The position numbers and the translations under genes were made by a program. Shown here piece by piece: positions 2,238 through 14,366 of a stretch of DNA of 14,801 bases. The DNA is from a virus. The DNA lies in UHGV virus genome UHGV-0275206; one strand, written 5' to 3'. Below the pieces are notes generated by a model. That model worked only from the letters and a program-made list of their open reading frames with translations. It had not been told where the DNA came from and made no database searches. Position 1 is the stretch's first letter; each line of letters starts with the position of its first letter.

Positions 2238-2731
2238 TGTTGCCCCCACAAACAGACCTCACGCTCAATCTCACGACGAGTCATCAGGCCTTTCCATTGC
2301 TTACCGCCAGCGTATGCCCAGCGACGTAGCTGGTCACATGCGCCCTTGATATCGCCCTGGTTTATTTTGCGAAGAAGAGTAGATGTTCTGAAATTGCCTG
2401 CGCCCACGTTATAGACGAACGAGTAAAGAGCGCCGCGCGTTGTTTCCGGTATATCGACTTTGATGTACGGGTTAATTTGTCTGGCGACCGTGGCAAGGTC
2501 TTTATTCAGGAGGGCTTTGCATTCTGCTTCGGTATACGTTTTACCTAGCATGATGTCTTTTCCGGTGTGTCCGTAACATACAGTCCATACACCAACAATA
2601 TCTTTGTATGGTATGTGGCTAACACCTTCCAGACCATCGTCACCACTTGGGCCAGTGATTAACACAGATGCTATAGCAATTGCCCCACCACCAATAGCAG
2701 CAGCAACAGCCTTGCGTAATGATGGCGACAT
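2234..2731 (-). CDS. R: SAR endolysin (T4-lysozyme-like muramidase, phage 21 R-type)
   Basis: 165 aa, [59 protein letters not shown]...: Gly/Ala-rich N-terminal signal-anchor-release domain followed by a lysozyme fold; near-identical to what I recall of phage 21 R. Overlaps the holin stop by ATGA/TAATG coupling. Confidence 0.9.
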
Positions 2732-2946
2732 TATTCACCTCTCGCAGCCTTACGCTTATCTTCTTTAATCTTGAAATAAAGGTTTGTCAGATACGTCAGC
2801 AAGCCAAATACCAGACTACCCAGCACTCCAATTGCCGCCCACTGTGAGGGCGTGACTTTATCGAGCAACTGTAAAAACCAGTACCCGACACTACCTGCTG
2901 AGGTGCCATAGGCGACACCCGTTGTTAACTTATCCATGGATTTCAT
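2731..2946 (-). CDS. S: Pinholin, class II holin of phage 21 S type, with dual-start motif (MKSMDK)
   Basis: From ATG 2946: [71 protein letters not shown] (71 aa). The MKS-M start pair gives antiholin and holin forms. SD GAGGTGG upstream. The ORF-track extension to 3009 begins with GTG and is unlikely. Confidence 0.9.
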
Positions 2947-2983
2947 AACCCCACCTCGCAGATGCGGGTGCTGTGTAATGGAA

Positions 2984-3008
2984 ATAAAAAGGCCACCTGA
3001 CGTGGCCA
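2984..3008 (-). terminator. Rho-independent terminator between the methyltransferase gene and the holin (minus strand)
   Basis: Minus strand GGCCAC-GTCAG-GTGGCC (plus 2991..3007) immediately followed by TTTTTATTT. Confidence 0.7.
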
Positions 3009-3013
3009 CCAGA

Positions 3014-4420: not shown

Positions 4421-4542
4421 GTCTTTTTCCCTTCTGGTTAACATGACATACCAATAACTCTTGTCTAAAATGCCAGCAAGATAAAAAGTCAGTATTCACG
4501 ACAACCAGCGTGTTTACTGTACTGCACCAGGTTTACAGGTAC

Positions 4543-4566
4543 AAAAAAACCGCTCAGCGGCGGGTT
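4543..4566 (-). terminator. Candidate tR'-like intrinsic terminator of a short late-promoter transcript
   Basis: Minus strand CCGC-TGA-GCGG short stem (extendable by a G-U) followed by TTTTTTT (plus A-run 4543..4549). Weak stem, strong T-tract. Confidence 0.4.
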
Positions 4567-4639
4567 TAAGTTGTGTGGCGAAGTAACCACTCTTAACATG
4601 CTAAATGAAAAAATGCGGACCGCGTTAGTGATTTTTCAT

Positions 4640-4695
4640 CTCTTTCACGTTAATTTAAGTCTACAGGATAGAATTAAAAATAAACTGAGGCAAAA
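4640..4695. promoter_or_regulatory. AT-rich divergent promoter region: candidate late promoter PR' (minus) and promoter for the plus-strand cargo operon
   Basis: Minus strand: -35 TTGCCT (plus 4688..4693), 17-bp spacer, -10 TATCCT (plus 4665..4670), then a -10-like TTAAAT element in the initially transcribed region, as in lambdoid PR' sigma-dependent pause sites. Plus strand: -10 TAGAAT (4669..4674) with a weak -35, then SD GAGG (4687..4690). Confidence 0.35.
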
Positions 4696-5559
4696 TTGGA
4701 TAGTTCTACCACTTTCAAAGTCTTCTATGATGCCGAAGATGAAGAATTAGCACAGCATAAGATTGATGCAAAAACACTAAGTTTATCAATAGGGTCTATG
4801 GCTGACCTTATTGCAAAGGCGGATCGAAATCTTAATGATGGGCAGGAAACAGTCAAATTGATGGTTACCGCTCCTGCTGCACCTGGATCAATCGGTGTTA
4901 TTTATTCAATGCAAGAGTTAGTTCCTCATGCTGTCGATGTCGCCAAAGCAATTGGACTCACTGTTGCTGGTGGTGCATTAGCTGGTGGCTCAGCTCTTGC
5001 ATTGATTCGACAATTGGGGAGTAGAAAGGTTATTTCTGTTACTCGAAAGGTCGACACACAAGAAGCAGTATTAGAACTTGATGGAGAAGAAATTATTTGT
5101 CATGAGGCTGTTGCAAAGTTAGTGACTGATCCCGAAATACGACAAGCCTTAGTTAACGTAGTTAGAGCACCACTAGATGGTAAAGAGCGCCCGATCTTCA
5201 AAATTACTGATGATAATGGAGAAGAGATTCTCAAGCTTGAAGGAGAAGAAACTGAAGAAATCAAACCACTACCACGTGGTACTTTACTAGAAAAAGAAGT
5301 TTCTATTGATGAGGTTAACGTCAGATTCATTCAAGTAAACTTTGAAGGGAATAAGGGATGGCGAATTGATTATCTTGGTGAAGAACATTCAGTAAGCCTA
5401 GATGACAATGTTTTCCTTTCGCAGGTTCAGGCTGCAACAGTACAATTTTCAAAAGAGGACCTTTATGTTGTTGATTTAGAAACAACAAAAACATTTACTG
5501 CGCGTGGCGTAACAAACCGTTATGCTATCAAAAAAGTTAAACGTAGACGACCAGCTTAA
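4696..5559 (+). CDS. Cargo gene A: acidic 287-aa protein of unknown function with one Gly-zipper hydrophobic segment
   Basis: TTG start 5 nt after SD GAGG. GC about 37-40% by eye versus about 50-55% in flanking phage genes. Segment AKAIGLTVAGGALAGGSALALIRQLG carries GxxxG motifs; basic C-terminal tail KKVKRRRPA. No catalytic motif recognised. Confidence 0.6.
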   Translation: MDSSTTFKVFYDAEDEELAQHKIDAKTLSLSIGSMADLIAKADRNLNDGQETVKLMVTAPAAPGSIGVIYSMQELVPHAVDVAKAIGLTVAGGALAGGSALALIRQLGSRKVISVTRKVDTQEAVLELDGEEIICHEAVAKLVTDPEIRQALVNVVRAPLDGKERPIFKITDDNGEEILKLEGEETEEIKPLPRGTLLEKEVSIDEVNVRFIQVNFEGNKGWRIDYLGEEHSVSLDDNVFLSQVQAATVQFSKEDLYVVDLETTKTFTARGVTNRYAIKKVKRRRPA

Positions 5560-5565
5560 ACAGGA

Positions 5566-5829
5566 ATGATGTTAACCCAGCAGATCATAGAACTCGCGAT
5601 GTGGATAGGGGTGATCATGATATCACCTCTCCTGTTTCGCTTCTCATACGCTGCATCCGCTTTACTATGGCGGAGGTTATTCCCTGTTCGTAAGTTTGAG
5701 TTTGTTTTTGTCGATGAAGTCACCAACGATAAGCGGTCAATCACTATTGTCATGCCTAAAGACAAAAGCAAAACTATCGTTCAACTGATAGAAGAAGCAA
5801 CGAATGACGGCACCAGTTCAAATGTCTGA
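5566..5829 (+). CDS. Cargo gene B: small membrane protein (87 aa, N-terminal transmembrane segment)
   Basis: Starts 7 nt after the gene A stop (AGGA ATG ATG). Hydrophobic stretch LAMWIGVIMISPLLFRFSYAASALLW, then a charged soluble tail. Confidence 0.55.
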   Translation: MMLTQQIIELAMWIGVIMISPLLFRFSYAASALLWRRLFPVRKFEFVFVDEVTNDKRSITIVMPKDKSKTIVQLIEEATNDGTSSNV

Positions 5830-6235
5830 TGAAAAAAAACCAACTAGCCCAGTCACTTCAACCCTCTCTACTGGCGGTTTTGGGATCATTTTGTCAGGTC
5901 TGGTAACATTTTGCGTACCTGATGCCAATTCAAACCTTGCGAAATTACTATATTTAATAATACCTCTTATTTCGGCAATCCTGACATATATACTTTGCTG
6001 GGTAATTGCACGTCATGGACTTGAATCACCAGAAGATGCAGCAAAAAGAAAGCAATGCCTCCGAGATCTCGAGACCATTGATAAGCAATTAGCATCGAAA
6101 TATACCACTGATGAGTTTAGGCAAAAGCTGCTACGCTCTCGAGAAGCAACTGTGGAAATAATGATCAATATAGGAAAAAATAGTACAGCAAATCCATTAC
6201 CAAAATTTGAACAAATTGAGAAAGATACTGTGTAG
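5804..6235 (+). CDS. Cargo gene C: membrane protein (143 aa, or 137 aa from ATG 5822) with two predicted TM helices and a charged C-terminal helical region
   Basis: Overlaps gene B (coupled). TM candidates GGFGIILSGLVTFCV and LAKLLYLIIPLISAILTYILCWVIA; C-terminal KRKQCLRDLETIDKQLASKYTTDEFRQKLLRSREATVEIM. Ends 18 bp from the convergent Q stop. Confidence 0.55.
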   Translation: MTAPVQMSDEKKPTSPVTSTLSTGGFGIILSGLVTFCVPDANSNLAKLLYLIIPLISAILTYILCWVIARHGLESPEDAAKRKQCLRDLETIDKQLASKYTTDEFRQKLLRSREATVEIMINIGKNSTANPLPKFEQIEKDTV

Positions 6236-6253
6236 GTATCTTTCTCATCTTAA

Positions 6254-6616
6254 TTAATCCATATCTAATGTTAGATCTAGCATTGAAAGGCAGCCATCAA
6301 TAAACCCCTCAGCCATCTGTATCTCAATGCGTATTAATTTCTCATCCTTTTTACGAGCCTTGGCGAGCTTTCTTTTAGAGATACCGAATAGGTAATGGGC
6401 AACAAGAAGCGAATGTTCGTCCGGCCTTTTTTGCTTTAGACGAGCAAGACAACCTTCAAGAATTAATGCATCACTATCTGAACAAGCCTGACGTGTTTTG
6501 CTTGTATAGGGAAGAAGCCCTTTAAACCCAGCAGCTATAGGAGAATAGTCAACTCCTGAACTATCACTCGCCGCCCATGCTCCCCAACGATCCAGAACCA
6601 TTTGAATATCACGCAT
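6254..6616 (-). CDS. Q: Late-gene antitermination protein Q (short Phage_antitermQ type, as in DLP12 QuuD / phage 82)
   Basis: From ATG 6616: MRDIQMVLDRWGAWAASDSSGVDYSPIAAGFKGLL...EGCLARLKQ...; close in pattern to the roughly 125-aa QuuD-type Q as I recall it. SD GGAG upstream. The track start at 6631 is a TTG. Confidence 0.8.
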   Translation of the reverse strand: MRDIQMVLDRWGAWAASDSSGVDYSPIAAGFKGLLPYTSKTRQACSDSDALILEGCLARLKQKRPDEHSLLVAHYLFGISKRKLAKARKKDEKLIRIEIQMAEGFIDGCLSMLDLTLDMD

Positions 6617-6633
6617 CAACTTTCTCCACAAAA

Positions 6634-7629
6634 TCAGGCCAGTACGCCAATTGCCAGCACACGATCGATAAAACGAAATATCAGCTCCAGTTGGGAGCCA
6701 TACTTCTCTTCAAATGCCACGGTATCTGCATGCAGCTCGTCGTGATGCTTTCTGCACAAAGGCAACACAAAAAGGTCATGCGCTTTTGTTCCCATTCCAC
6801 CCTGACCGTGACCTATCAGGTGGTGGGGATCATCAGCGGGCTTTCCACAACATGCACACGGCTGTGTCTTAACCCAGCGCGTGTACTTTTCATTAACCCA
6901 GCGGCGACGTTTTGGGCGTAACATAAAAGACTCCGGCGACTCCGGATCCACTTTCAGCGCCAGCACCTTTTTCGCCTTATCCTGGATGATGCTGGTGGCA
7001 GGAACCGAAGGCACAAGGTCACTTTCCCGGGTAACAGACGGCACAACAGGCTTCGGTAATCTCAGTGCCTTACGGGCTGCACTTTCCGGTAAGGCATCCG
7101 CCAGATCATTACGAATCAGCCACCAGCACAGTTCCGGCATTGTCACAACGTGACTGTCATCAAAACCGAGATCCCGACGCACAACAGACAACACCCAGCG
7201 GGCACAGTTATCCGTTGCCATTGATTCCAGCCGTTCCGTGAACTGATCGCGCAGCTGGTTATCGCAGTGCCAGCACAGACGGATTGCACCCGGAGCGTGT
7301 CGCATTGTGGTCATGTTCTCGCTGTGCCAGTCGGAATGAGGCCACTGGCAGCCTTTTTCACGAAGTAACCAGCTTTCAAGACATTCCACGCCACCAGCAC
7401 GACGGATCACTGCCTCATTGCGGAACACGGCCCGAACGGCAGGATCATCCGCCAGCGGTTGTGATGCCGCCGGAACGGCACCACTGGCGAAAGATGAATA
7501 ACGCTCCGGCTCAGGCTCCAGCAGGACACGCCCCTGCATAAACAGGGGCATCAGCTCTGAACCTGGCCTGAACAATACGATCCCCATACGCGGGGCTATT
7601 TCAGGGGTCAGTAGTGCTCTCACGGTCAC
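6634..7629 (-). CDS. DUF968 (YdfU-like) protein with C-terminal HNH-like Cys/His cluster
   Basis: 331 aa; C-terminal ...QPCACCGKPADDPHHLIGHGQGG...LPLCRKHHDELH; sits directly upstream of Q as ydfU does next to quuQ in Qin-type prophages. GTG start (alternative GTG at 7623 with SD GAGG). Confidence 0.75.
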   Translation of the reverse strand: MTVRALLTPEIAPRMGIVLFRPGSELMPLFMQGRVLLEPEPERYSSFASGAVPAASQPLADDPAVRAVFRNEAVIRRAGGVECLESWLLREKGCQWPHSDWHSENMTTMRHAPGAIRLCWHCDNQLRDQFTERLESMATDNCARWVLSVVRRDLGFDDSHVVTMPELCWWLIRNDLADALPESAARKALRLPKPVVPSVTRESDLVPSVPATSIIQDKAKKVLALKVDPESPESFMLRPKRRRWVNEKYTRWVKTQPCACCGKPADDPHHLIGHGQGGMGTKAHDLFVLPLCRKHHDELHADTVAFEEKYGSQLELIFRFIDRVLAIGVLA

Positions 7630-7630
7630 C

Positions 7631-8440
7631 TCAATGAACGGTATCGAGCAGCTTTAACAGCTCAGGGAATCGGGATTCGAAGAAATGCGGCTGCGTCTCA
7701 CGCGGATTTGCCGGACTGGTGATGTTCTTGCCGAACATGCAGCCTTTCGCCGTCAGCGACCAGAATTTTTTGATGTTGTTAATCGCGGTACGGCTGTATC
7801 GTTCGCGCTGCTCGACGATCCCCAGCTTCGCCATCTGGTGATATGCCTGATTAGCTGTCAGGCGGATACCATACTGCTTCAGCAGTGCACTCAGTGACAG
7901 CGTGGGGCGGCTTGAGCCATCAGGCGCGTCAGCAGGAGCATCAATGGCATAGCGCGGTGCCAGATTCGGTAAGCCAACAGCCTCCTGGAGTTTCTGACAG
8001 GCACCAAGCACTGAAGAGTTAGACAGGTTTAACTCCCTGCGCATAAAGTCCAGCAGAATCACTCCAGCCTGCATCTTGTCAGCAGCCTGCCCGGATAATT
8101 TTTCCGGTGCGCTGGTTACCATATCGAAAGTACGGATCACCTTCAGATGGAATGACGGGCTGATCCACATTGCATAGGCATACACCAGTTCTTTGCAGAC
8201 ATACGTCCCCTGGTTATTTCCGCCATTAATGACGCTAACTGGTTGATTTTGTTCCAGAGGCGGAATTCCACCCTCGGTGAAAAGTTGTTCAATCAATTCA
8301 CAGGTTTGCTTATTGGAGAGCCAGTATTTCGGGCGGTTTTTTTGTTCTCCCCCGGCTGCCCTGTGCAGATCGTTCAGGCTGTAACGCCCATAAGCATCAC
8401 GACGAACTTCAATACCATCAATGACCATCAGATTATTCAT
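7631..8440 (-). CDS. KilA-N domain protein (269 aa)
   Basis: From ATG 8440 (SD GAGGAGAAA): MNNLMVIDGIEVRRDAYGRYSLNDLHRAAGGEQKNRPKYWLSNKQTCELIE...YVCKELVYAYAMWISPSFHLKVIRTFD, a typical KilA-N N-terminal domain, plus a C-terminal domain of unknown function. Confidence 0.8.
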   Translation of the reverse strand: MNNLMVIDGIEVRRDAYGRYSLNDLHRAAGGEQKNRPKYWLSNKQTCELIEQLFTEGGIPPLEQNQPVSVINGGNNQGTYVCKELVYAYAMWISPSFHLKVIRTFDMVTSAPEKLSGQAADKMQAGVILLDFMRRELNLSNSSVLGACQKLQEAVGLPNLAPRYAIDAPADAPDGSSRPTLSLSALLKQYGIRLTANQAYHQMAKLGIVEQRERYSRTAINNIKKFWSLTAKGCMFGKNITSPANPRETQPHFFESRFPELLKLLDTVH

Positions 8441-12505: not shown

Positions 12506-13198
12506 ATGAACATAGGAAACCGAGTCAGACAACTTCGCCAAGCGAAGAACATGAAAATCGCCGATCTCGCTGAAGCAATAGGAGTAGATGCGGCGAACAT
12601 CTCGCGCTTAGAAACGGGTAAGCAAAAACAATTTACCGAACAAACACTGAGTAATATTGCCAAGAGCTTAGGTGTTGATATTGCTGATCTCTTTACCTCT
12701 GCCCACAAAAGTAATACTGTATATAAAAACAGTAATAATGAGGATGTTGCGCAGGTGAAGGATGTGTTCCGTATTGAAATGCTGGATATCAGTGCCAGTG
12801 CGGGAAATGGCCTTATCCAGGGCGGTGATGTCATTGATGTGATTCATGCCATCGAATACAGAACTGATAATGCTGTATCAATGTTCGGCGGACGACCAGC
12901 CAATCACATCAAAGTTATCAACGTTCGTGGGGACAGTATGTGTCCAACCATTGAGCCAGGAGATCTCATCTTCGTTGATGTCAGCATCAATCAGTTTGAT
13001 GGTGATGGTATATATGTCTTTGGTTTTGATGACAAAATATACGTTAAAAGACTTCAAATGATTCCTGACAAACTGCTGGTGATTTCTGATAACCAGATTT
13101 ACCGTGAATGGGGAATTACTAGCGAAAACGAACACCGATTCATGGTCTTTGGAAAGGTCTTAATCAGTCAGTCGCAAACCCTTAAGAGACATAATTAA
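12506..13198 (+). CDS. cI: CI-type prophage repressor: N-terminal XRE HTH plus C-terminal S24 (LexA-like) autopeptidase domain
   Basis: 230 aa; IADLAEAIGVDAANISRLETGKQ HTH; C-terminal GDSMCPTIEPGDLIFVD...YVKRL with Ser/Lys dyad; candidate Ala-Gly cleavage site in DISASAGNG. Confidence 0.88.
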   Translation: MNIGNRVRQLRQAKNMKIADLAEAIGVDAANISRLETGKQKQFTEQTLSNIAKSLGVDIADLFTSAHKSNTVYKNSNNEDVAQVKDVFRIEMLDISASAGNGLIQGGDVIDVIHAIEYRTDNAVSMFGGRPANHIKVINVRGDSMCPTIEPGDLIFVDVSINQFDGDGIYVFGFDDKIYVKRLQMIPDKLLVISDNQIYREWGITSENEHRFMVFGKVLISQSQTLKRHN

Positions 13199-13517: not shown

Positions 13518-14009
13518 CTACAGATTGCCGTTAAGTTTTCTGGACAACTCCTCAATGGATGGAGGCGATACGTAATCCGGATTTTTATTCATCAGAAACT
13601 TATTTTCACAGTGGAGGCACCTGCTTTTATGAAAAAGCTCATCTTCGCTAACCGGGAATGGTTGAAGTATCGATACTATCTTTTGTCCAAAACATTTTGG
13701 GCAAAGATGCATGGTTATGCTGCCACCGTTCACGATTACCTCCTTCGAGTATACAAAAGTACCCGACTCAAGTTGGTTAAGGATATAGCCTTCCGTCTGA
13801 GCCTCAAAGTTTTCGAATTCTGCAATTTTAGCTTTGAGAGAAGCATTTATTTCTTGATAAGAGCCCACCAGTTCAACGAGAGACACGCATTCGCGCTGAA
13901 TAGACGCAAGCTTTGAGTTCAGCTCACCAATAGCCGCATTTACTTCAGCTTGAGTTTTTGCCTCGTTCATTAGTTTTGCAATCTGGGCTGTTTCACGAAT
14001 AGCCGTCAT
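13518..14009 (-). CDS. Hypothetical coiled-coil protein with C-terminal CxxC...CxxC zinc-ribbon (about 163 aa from ATG 14009)
   Basis: From ATG 14009: MTAIRETAQIAKLMNEAKTQAEVNAAIGELNSKLASIQRECVSLVELVGSYQEINASLKAKIAEFENFEAQTEGYIL...MHLCPKCFGQKIV...SRCLHCENKF. The ORF-track N-terminal extension (MWCRVPPGAWRRLH...) looks non-coding. Own terminator; orientation convergent on cI. Confidence 0.6.
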   Translation of the reverse strand: MTAIRETAQIAKLMNEAKTQAEVNAAIGELNSKLASIQRECVSLVELVGSYQEINASLKAKIAEFENFEAQTEGYILNQLESGTFVYSKEVIVNGGSITMHLCPKCFGQKIVSILQPFPVSEDELFHKSRCLHCENKFLMNKNPDYVSPPSIEELSRKLNGNL

Positions 14010-14047
14010 TGCTGCCGTTAATTCAGCGATCACATTGAATACTCTTA

Positions 14048-14093
14048 TTGTTGTTGGGGATATCCAGATTAACCGAATCCTTGTTGTTGGGGA
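14048..14093. repeat. Two perfect 13-bp direct repeats ttgttgttgggga, 33 bp apart, upstream of the zinc-ribbon gene
   Basis: Copies at 14048..14060 and 14081..14093, each (TTG)3GGGA; located 40-85 bp upstream of the ATG at 14009 on the minus strand. Confidence 0.6.
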
Positions 14094-14295
14094 ATAACCA
14101 GGTCCACCTCGCCTGATGTGGCTAAAAGCAGGCACATAACAGCTAAGTATTTTCAACCAGAGAGAATCCTTAGCGTTGTGGTGAATGCGGCTCAGCGCAC
14201 GCGGGTTAAGGTTGAGGCTGACAGTCGACCTTCTGTGGATACCCACCCGCCTGGTGTGCAACCTTCGCCAGGCACCGGGAGGCACCCGGCACCAC

Positions 14296-14366
14296 AACTT
14301 TATGCTGTGTGTAGTCCTGGCGGTACCAGTTTGTACCCTTGCTTCCGGCTGGTACCGTCCTTTTTT
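14296..14366 (+). ncRNA. DicF-like small RNA candidate ending in a strong intrinsic terminator
   Basis: CCUGGCGGUACCAGUUUGUACCC resembles the DicF core (UUUGGCGGUAUCAGUUUUACUCC) as I recall it. Hairpin GGCGGTACCAG (14319..14329) with CTGGTACCGTC (14349..14359), then TTTTTT (14361..14366). No ORF with an SD in the region; lies in the pL-side operon, as dicF does in Qin. Confidence 0.45.

Follow-up and report, generated by a model that had tools for sequence, protein, structure and literature searches.

The 14,801-nucleotide (nt) stretch of viral DNA UHGV-0275206 (hereafter, the window) carries, between the gene for the antiterminator Q and the late-gene region of an E. coli lambdoid prophage, an exchangeable cargo cassette of ~1.6 kb (positions 4637-6254), consisting of a leader, three plus-strand genes denoted here A, B and C, and a terminator hairpin. 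Judging from sequence comparisons, A-B-C is an autonomous, horizontally exchanged accessory ('moron') cassette, and its largest product, protein A, belongs to a very large prophage protein family that has been listed among candidate defence genes. The most likely role of the cassette, to which we assign a probability of about one half, is exclusion or abortive infection that would be expressed in the lysogen and would act via the membrane. This assignment rests on the genomic context and on the architecture of the module.

Gene A (4696-5559) encodes a protein of 287 amino acids (aa) from a TTG start codon, with a Shine-Dalgarno sequence, GAGG, at 4687-4690, five bases 5' of it; the position of the start is kept across homologous loci, where the codon is ATG, GTG or TTG. 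After a gap of 6 nt follows gene B (5566-5829; 87 aa), which in turn overlaps gene C (5822-6235). The product of C has 137 aa if translation starts at the ATG at 5822 and 143 aa if it starts at 5804. Because the homologues of C are mostly of 133-138 aa and the ATG at 5822 overlaps the stop codon of B (as ATGTCTGA), the shorter product is probably the correct one. The short A-B spacing and the overlap of B and C thus make translational coupling of the three genes plausible. All three are real genes under purifying selection, the ratio of nonsynonymous to synonymous substitution rates (dN/dS) against orthologues being 0.03 for A, 0.07-0.15 for B and 0.09-0.27 for C. The cassette differs in base composition from the surrounding phage DNA, with a GC content of 39.6% versus 49.1% in the left and 52.3% in the right flank, and with a GC content at third codon positions (GC3) of 0.24 in A and 0.28 in C versus 0.50-0.56 in the neighbouring genes. 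All phage genes adjoining the cassette are on the minus strand, that is, antiparallel to A-B-C. The original prediction for this DNA, a low-GC block of three plus-strand open reading frames (ORFs) running against its phage neighbours, is therefore confirmed in both coordinates and composition.

The boundaries of the cassette emerged from phages in which the same position is empty or differently occupied. In the Stx2 phage 1720a-02, homology to the window extends to 4636 and resumes at 6258, and the two points are contiguous in the phage; a conserved backbone element (4566-4636) there directly abuts the stop codon of Q. Such an empty junction, which the original prediction had suggested looking for, sets the limits of the cassette at 4637-6254. 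Phage cdtI shows the same boundaries (4636 and 6255) with two other antiparallel genes inside (locus L069, 2750-4138), namely, orf54, encoding a 313-aa protein with DUF6731, and orf53, encoding a hydrophobic, apparently multi-transmembrane (multi-TM) protein of 147 aa. In mEp460_4F5, the cargo (locus L002, 3737-4663) is one antiparallel gene for a 308-aa protein without an assigned family. Homology of A to the orf54 product or to the 308-aa protein was considered and rejected (hhalign probability of 0.4%). At fixed boundaries, the slot is thus found empty, filled by A-B-C, or filled by the cdtI or the mEp460_4F5 cargo, and the interval between the Q stop codon and the late-promoter region behaves as a cargo hotspot. 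Among the hallmarks of a moron, the cassette displays fixed boundaries, deviant GC content and a terminator hairpin, whereas a promoter was not found by the scan described below. The cdtI and mEp460_4F5 cargos, which had no match in PADLOC, are candidate accessory genes in their own right.

We fetched 65 loci, drawn from complete genomes, IMG/VR prophages and metagenomes, in which a relative of A is encoded. Homologues of B and C were located directly 3' of A, in unchanged order, in all 65 loci, including the Pseudomonas-type ones, in which A is only 36-37% identical and B is present but was missed by the gene finder. The retention of A-B-C throughout this set therefore indicates that the triad is a conserved functional unit. 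In the enteric loci, the triad always lies between Q and the lysis cassette, and the same Q family adjoins it in every case; the Pseudomonas triads are not adjacent to Q or to lysis genes. Alleles of Q and of the module have been reshuffled, as seen in loci L020-23, where Q is 95% identical and A, B and C are 71, 56 and 53% identical, respectively. The exact module is rare, being found in 12 of 5426 complete E. coli genomes (99.7-100% identity). Natural E. coli lysogens, FORC_042 and an O25b:H4 strain among them, are available. No deposited phage genome contains the exact module, and neither A nor C had a match in a tblastn search of 50,697 deposited phage genomes. In only a few of these 50,697 genomes does the family occur in its remote form, and where the host is named, they are mostly those of temperate phages of Gram-positive bacteria. 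A scan of genome contigs returned a single locus. One of the loci (L015), from a contig titled Vagococcus sp. WN89Y, encodes A (69% identity), B, C, Q (67%), DUF968 and a DNA methylase; the presence of an enterobacterial-type prophage in a contig with a Gram-positive label is likely to reflect assembly contamination or misassignment.

Protein A matched the PADLOC model PDC-S42 (PDLC05015) over residues 3-287 (E = 9.8e-33), PHROG 3243, a family of unknown function, over its full length (E = 2.7e-61), and the NCBIfam model NF053583, 'LAPAL motif-containing putative phage structural protein', with 207.5 bits against a cut-off of 60. These matches place A in the PDC-S42/PHROG 3243/NF053583 family, where, by its sequence, it forms a divergent branch. 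Single-gene forms of ~305 aa make up the centre of the PDC-S42 model, and the remote ~305-aa relatives of A score 1e-77 to 1e-100 on it; the eponymous 'LAPAL' motif reads DLAPALL in remote members and DAKTLSL in the A of the window. An exhaustive profile search recovered 2026 clusters at 50% identity (787 with E <= 1e-10), and nearly all members are 285-315 aa long and align end to end, in a single architecture. The earlier statement that the module is undescribed fails for A, which already figures in these three collections, although as a candidate family or one of unknown function; that no known family could be assigned holds for B and C, for which the searches of Pfam, PADLOC, PHROG and NCBIfam matched no model and revealed no known relatives. 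Likewise, the PADLOC comparison proposed at the outset named A and left B and C unmatched. New here are B, C and the three-gene form, whereas the candidate family of A was already known.

We analyzed the genomic neighbourhoods of the remote members of this family, which provide the strongest clue to its function. Six independent members are encoded directly 3' of, and on the same strand as, a prophage cI/S24 repressor gene, divergent from cro/YdaS, in E. coli-type Rac-like prophages (two different proteins), in two different P. savastanoi prophages (one protein), in Halopseudomonas and in another genome. The position downstream of the repressor is the site of rexAB in lambda. In the Rac-like prophages, the gene lies between the repressor gene and kilR, a region that holds sieB in the Rac prophage of K-12. 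The homologue in Lactobacillus phage A2 is ORF19, located between lysin and int, an interval that is a classical site of lysogenic conversion, and in a Listeria phage the homologue is flanked by a 'superinfection immunity' gene and int. The remote members are single genes, none accompanied by B or C. Exceptions to the repressor context are two Mu-like prophages, in one of which the A-family gene precedes mor and in the other lies inside the head cluster, and one chromosomal copy. The latter, from Arenimonas, is followed by genes for a 167-aa Cys-rich protein and an ADP-ribosylglycohydrolase, a different possible partnership (locus L075, 7001-7504). Judging from these neighbourhoods, the A family is typical of lysogeny modules rather than virion modules, which argues against the 'structural' label of NCBIfam.

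The same neighbourhoods bear on whether the triad might be a component of the lytic programme, that is, whether it might act in the virion or its assembly, or regulate the timing of lysis. The name of NF053583 speaks for such a role, as do a Mu-like phage in which an A-family gene lies between the gpF/G head genes and the protease gene, and the invariable placement of the enteric triads between Q and the lysis cassette. Nevertheless, we regard it as very improbable. The cassette runs against the late genes, lies beyond the inferred late promoter and terminator and outside the structural module, and is replaced by nothing or by unrelated genes in otherwise similar phages. Furthermore, A and C are unmatched in the deposited phage genomes, most of the remote members of the family reside beside a repressor and not among structural genes, the Pseudomonas triads are away from Q and lysis genes, and no holin, antiholin or structural family of Pfam was matched.

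Protein A is acidic, with a pI of 4.97, and contains a Gly/Ala-rich hydrophobic stretch at residues ~85-105. Of the original description of an acidic 287-aa protein with a Gly-zipper hydrophobic segment, the charge and the hydrophobic stretch are upheld; the hydropathy of the stretch is borderline (Kyte-Doolittle value of 1.78), and in the AlphaFold (AF2) model it does not form a membrane helix. The stretch keeps its position in the family, 126 of 136 representatives having their peak of hydropathy within residues 60-100, with a median of 1.58. A TM helix in this segment is thus unsupported by AF2 and borderline by hydropathy throughout the family, and the stretch could be a membrane-interacting or a buried segment. 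The AF2 model (pLDDT 86.5, pTM 0.77) is of mixed alpha/beta composition and multi-domain, with one OB-like domain. A Foldseek search of PDB with this model, one of the checks suggested at the start, returned nothing at E <= 1e-3, and a sequence search of PDB with A returned nothing either; in BFVD, the model matched four viral proteins, all uncharacterised. A is predicted with confidence to adopt a novel multi-domain fold.

By hydropathy, B has one N-terminal hydrophobic (TM) segment followed by a small soluble C-terminal part, and C has two hydrophobic helices followed by a two-helix charged tail, in agreement with the soluble protein plus small membrane proteins originally proposed. B retains the motif W.GVI...P..YRF.YA.S.LLWR+LFP across loci. 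In C, the first hydrophobic helix contains STGG.G.ILS, and the second is followed by an almost invariant juxtamembrane RHGLESPEDAAKR, which, predicted to be cytoplasmic and next to the second TM segment, is a candidate protein-protein contact site. The AlphaFold model of C, of moderate confidence (pLDDT 63), contains helices at residues 17-31, 38-65, 70-91 and 97-116. Neither B nor C matched a holin or lysis family in Pfam, PHROG or NCBIfam, and both are encoded on the strand opposite to the holin gene (2731-3009), i.e., not on the late transcript.

Small hydrophobic proteins co-translated with a larger soluble partner are also what a toxin-antitoxin or addiction module would look like, in which B and/or C would be membrane toxins curbed by A, or the reverse, and the prophage would be stabilised. 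Such cargo does occur around this region, since HicAB is encoded at a neighbouring position in some related prophages. However, A is widespread as a single gene without B and C, and hence is not simply their antitoxin, and there is no sign of an unstable-antitoxin arrangement in the cassette. We consider a toxin-antitoxin function quite unlikely; it overlaps with abortive infection and in part would be a sub-case of the exclusion model.

The signals around the cassette bear on how it might be transcribed. The cassette-specific leader (4637-4695, plus strand) includes, besides the GAGG of gene A, a -10-like TAGAAT at 4669-4674. In a consensus promoter scan, no plus-strand site in 4637-4695 reached the criteria, and the number of promoter sites in the region was not above that in shuffled sequences. 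The strongest promoter-like site of the region (4443-4471, plus strand; ATGACA-17-TAAAAT, 10/12) is part of the phage backbone and faces the slot; it lies upstream of the tR' hairpin, the T-tract of which is poor in that direction. This site could drive whatever cargo occupies the slot. At the other end, a hairpin with a 13-bp stem (6217-6247) spans the stop codon of C and lies 18 nt from that of Q. A stable hairpin is present at the C/Q junction in nearly all homologous loci, with unrelated stem sequences, and this conservation of structure rather than sequence supports the identification of the hairpin as a terminator that separates the convergent C and Q genes.

On the left, the slot is bordered by the 70-bp conserved backbone element (4566-4636, minus strand), which holds the palindrome GCGGTCCGC and TGTTAAGAGTGG. 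The element is found in all enteric loci, with an identity above that of the flanking DNA, and accompanies this Q family wherever the latter occurs; phage Ayreon, which has a different type of Q, lacks it, and homology to that phage ends at 4566. Next to the element, upstream of the late genes, is a tR'-like intrinsic terminator (4549-4561, minus strand) consisting of a stem followed by TTTTTTT, and the Ayreon record annotates a 'terminator' at the homologous place. From their position, the element and the terminator most probably represent the Q-dependent late promoter/qut leader and its tR'. The late-promoter role is inferred, because no -35 and -10 hexamers for pR' could be assigned within 4566-4636. 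If the element is the late promoter, the cassette separates Q from pR' and is not traversed by late transcription. Within the element, the perfect palindrome GCGGACCGC, followed by AGTGATTTTT, at 4612-4626 (plus strand) is invariant in the enteric loci and finishes precisely where the cassette begins; it might bind Q, terminate plus-strand transcription or serve as the recombination joint for cassette exchange. No Rfam family was found in the window.

The Q gene itself (6254-6631, minus strand; PF06530, E = 6e-52) is convergent with the cassette and encodes a distant relative of Q21; the protein of the window reached E = 0.003 against PDB entries 6JNX/6P18. With a GC content of 42.6% and a GC3 of 0.33, the gene resembles the cassette in composition more than it does the early genes. 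Homology to mEp460_4F5 begins within Q, at 6489, and the two Q proteins share the N-terminal part only; position 6489 is a recombination junction inside the Q gene.

In the mechanism that we favour, A would be a cytoplasmic protein, the conserved core component of the system and its probable sensor, and its OB-like domain suggests a nucleic-acid or protein intermediate of a phage as a possible trigger. B, with one TM segment, and C, with two and a helical cytoplasmic tail, would be inner-membrane partners or effectors of A, the activation of which would result in membrane damage or depolarisation, or in a block to phage entry; alternatively, B and C might anchor and modulate A. Being convergent with Q and having its own hairpin terminator, the cassette would be transcribed apart from, and against, the lytic programme. 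Upon induction, read-through from Q could silence the cassette by antisense transcription, avoiding self-harm. The evidence for exclusion or abortive infection is circumstantial and consists of the presence of A among the PDC-S42 candidates, the repressor-adjacent relatives and the relatives in lysogeny modules of phages of Gram-positive bacteria. Hence, the cassette stands as a good candidate for the exclusion or defence module originally proposed.

Several observations weigh against this assignment. PDC candidates originate from a guilt-by-embedding screen for genes lying within BREX, DISARM and Type I restriction-modification (R-M) loci, and its authors state that the 145 PDC systems are untested (bioRxiv 10.1101/2024.01.29.577857). 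We found no paper naming PDC-S42, the LAPAL motif or WP_032198010, nor are these mentioned in the supplements of the PDC paper and of DefensePredictor. Because the scan gave no cassette promoter, its expression in the lysogen is an assumption. The majority of the family does without B and C, and the membrane proteins therefore may be modulators rather than effectors. NCBIfam names the family a 'putative phage structural protein', and in the Mu-like phage contig L085 the A-family gene (7001-7948) is located inside the head cluster, on the same strand, between Mu F/G-like genes and the protease gene, the only context that fits this label. Finally, guilt by location equally fits other lysogenic-conversion functions.

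The last point leads to a fitness cassette unrelated to defence, whereby A and the membrane proteins would alter the envelope, the stress physiology or the host interactions of the lysogen. An accessory slot, a lysogeny-module context, an independent transcription unit and a low GC content fit any moron, the region between Q and the lysis genes is a well-known moron site (stx; nmpC in DLP12), and no significant Pfam domain, and no defence motif, was detected in A, B or C. Conversely, A has no signal peptide, enzyme domain or virulence-family match, its family has been independently recovered as embedded in BREX, DISARM and R-M loci, and its occurrence in prophage immunity regions of both Proteobacteria and Firmicutes points to a phage-directed rather than a host-niche function. 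Overall, we judge a conversion function unlikely.

Exclusion or abortive infection by A-B-C might also be the local form of something broader. Tentatively, and with somewhat less than even confidence, we propose that the PDC-S42/'LAPAL' family, with at least 2000 clusters, is the core of a widespread exclusion or abortive-infection mechanism of a new fold, and that A-B-C is a three-component version with recruited membrane effectors or anchors. If so, a function would be provided for a very large prophage protein family without a known role, and a three-component, membrane-linked system of a new fold would be added to the few Rex-like systems that combine a soluble sensor with a membrane effector, of which five RexAB-like ones have been described so far (PMC12894663). 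Furthermore, the precisely bounded slot in Q21-related lambdoid prophages, with at least three unrelated antiparallel cargos, can be mined for accessory and defence genes. The construct required to test the cassette is small (~1.7 kb).

The remainder of the window is that of the prophage. To the right of the cassette, the minus strand encodes Q (PF06530), DUF968, KilA-N and RusA, and to the left, also on the minus strand, a small hypothetical protein, a DNA methylase, the P21-type holin (2731-3009), lysozyme and Rz. A second plus-strand accessory gene (853-1278), antiparallel to its neighbours, lies between Rz and the terminase region; it encodes a 141-aa DUF1398 protein (Pfam E = 3e-43), has a GC content of 35% and is part of a low-GC stretch (751-1350). 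It had no PADLOC match, and the compared RefSeq record has no coding sequence at the corresponding place. Just beyond the cI-like repressor gene (12506-13198, plus strand) and convergent with it is an ORF for a 259-aa protein (13518-14297, minus strand), in a stretch of 42-43% GC, with no match in Pfam or PADLOC; it may be a further accessory gene of the immunity region.

Among known systems, tail assembly interference (Tai) was considered as the identity of the cassette and rejected, being a different system at a different locus. Classical morons of the Q-to-lysis interval in lambdoid phages, such as stx in Stx phages and nmpC in DLP12, share with the cassette the genomic region, the foreign base composition and the variable presence among related phages. 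However, stx lies 3' of pR'/tR' on the late strand and is Q-dependent, whereas the cassette, inserted between Q and the inferred pR', has the opposite orientation and its own terminator and should not depend on Q. The initial view of the locus as a moron site thus holds for the variable slot beside Q, empty in 1720a-02, and not for the parallel with stx. The cdtI and mEp460_4F5 cargos share with the cassette the boundaries, the antiparallel orientation and a similar size, and that of cdtI also combines a soluble ~300-aa protein with a small membrane protein, although neither cargo has a detectable sequence relationship to A. The PDC-S42 family agrees with A over its full length, in size (~290-305 aa) and in being mostly carried by prophages, but it is defined as a single-gene system, whereas the branch represented in the window is always followed by the two membrane-protein genes.

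Finally, in the RexAB systems of lambda and P. putida (RexABpp), a prophage likewise encodes a soluble protein of ~280 aa and a membrane protein of ~140 aa, transcribed apart from the lytic genes. As originally stated, this likeness is one of architecture only: homology of A to RexA, in sequence or fold, was rejected, B and C had no RexB match in Pfam, and in place of four RexB-like TM helices, C has two hydrophobic and two soluble helices and B has one segment. The cassette of the window also adjoins Q, with the repressor gene far off, whereas remote relatives of A hold the rexAB position 3' of the repressor. Rex systems, which are expressed in the lysogen and, of the known systems, act most like the one proposed for A-B-C, use the membrane protein as effector and the soluble one as activator, and an excess of the soluble protein of P. 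putida RexABpp causes membrane damage that requires the membrane protein (PMC12894663). By analogy, this division into activator and effector is the mechanism that we propose for A-B-C.

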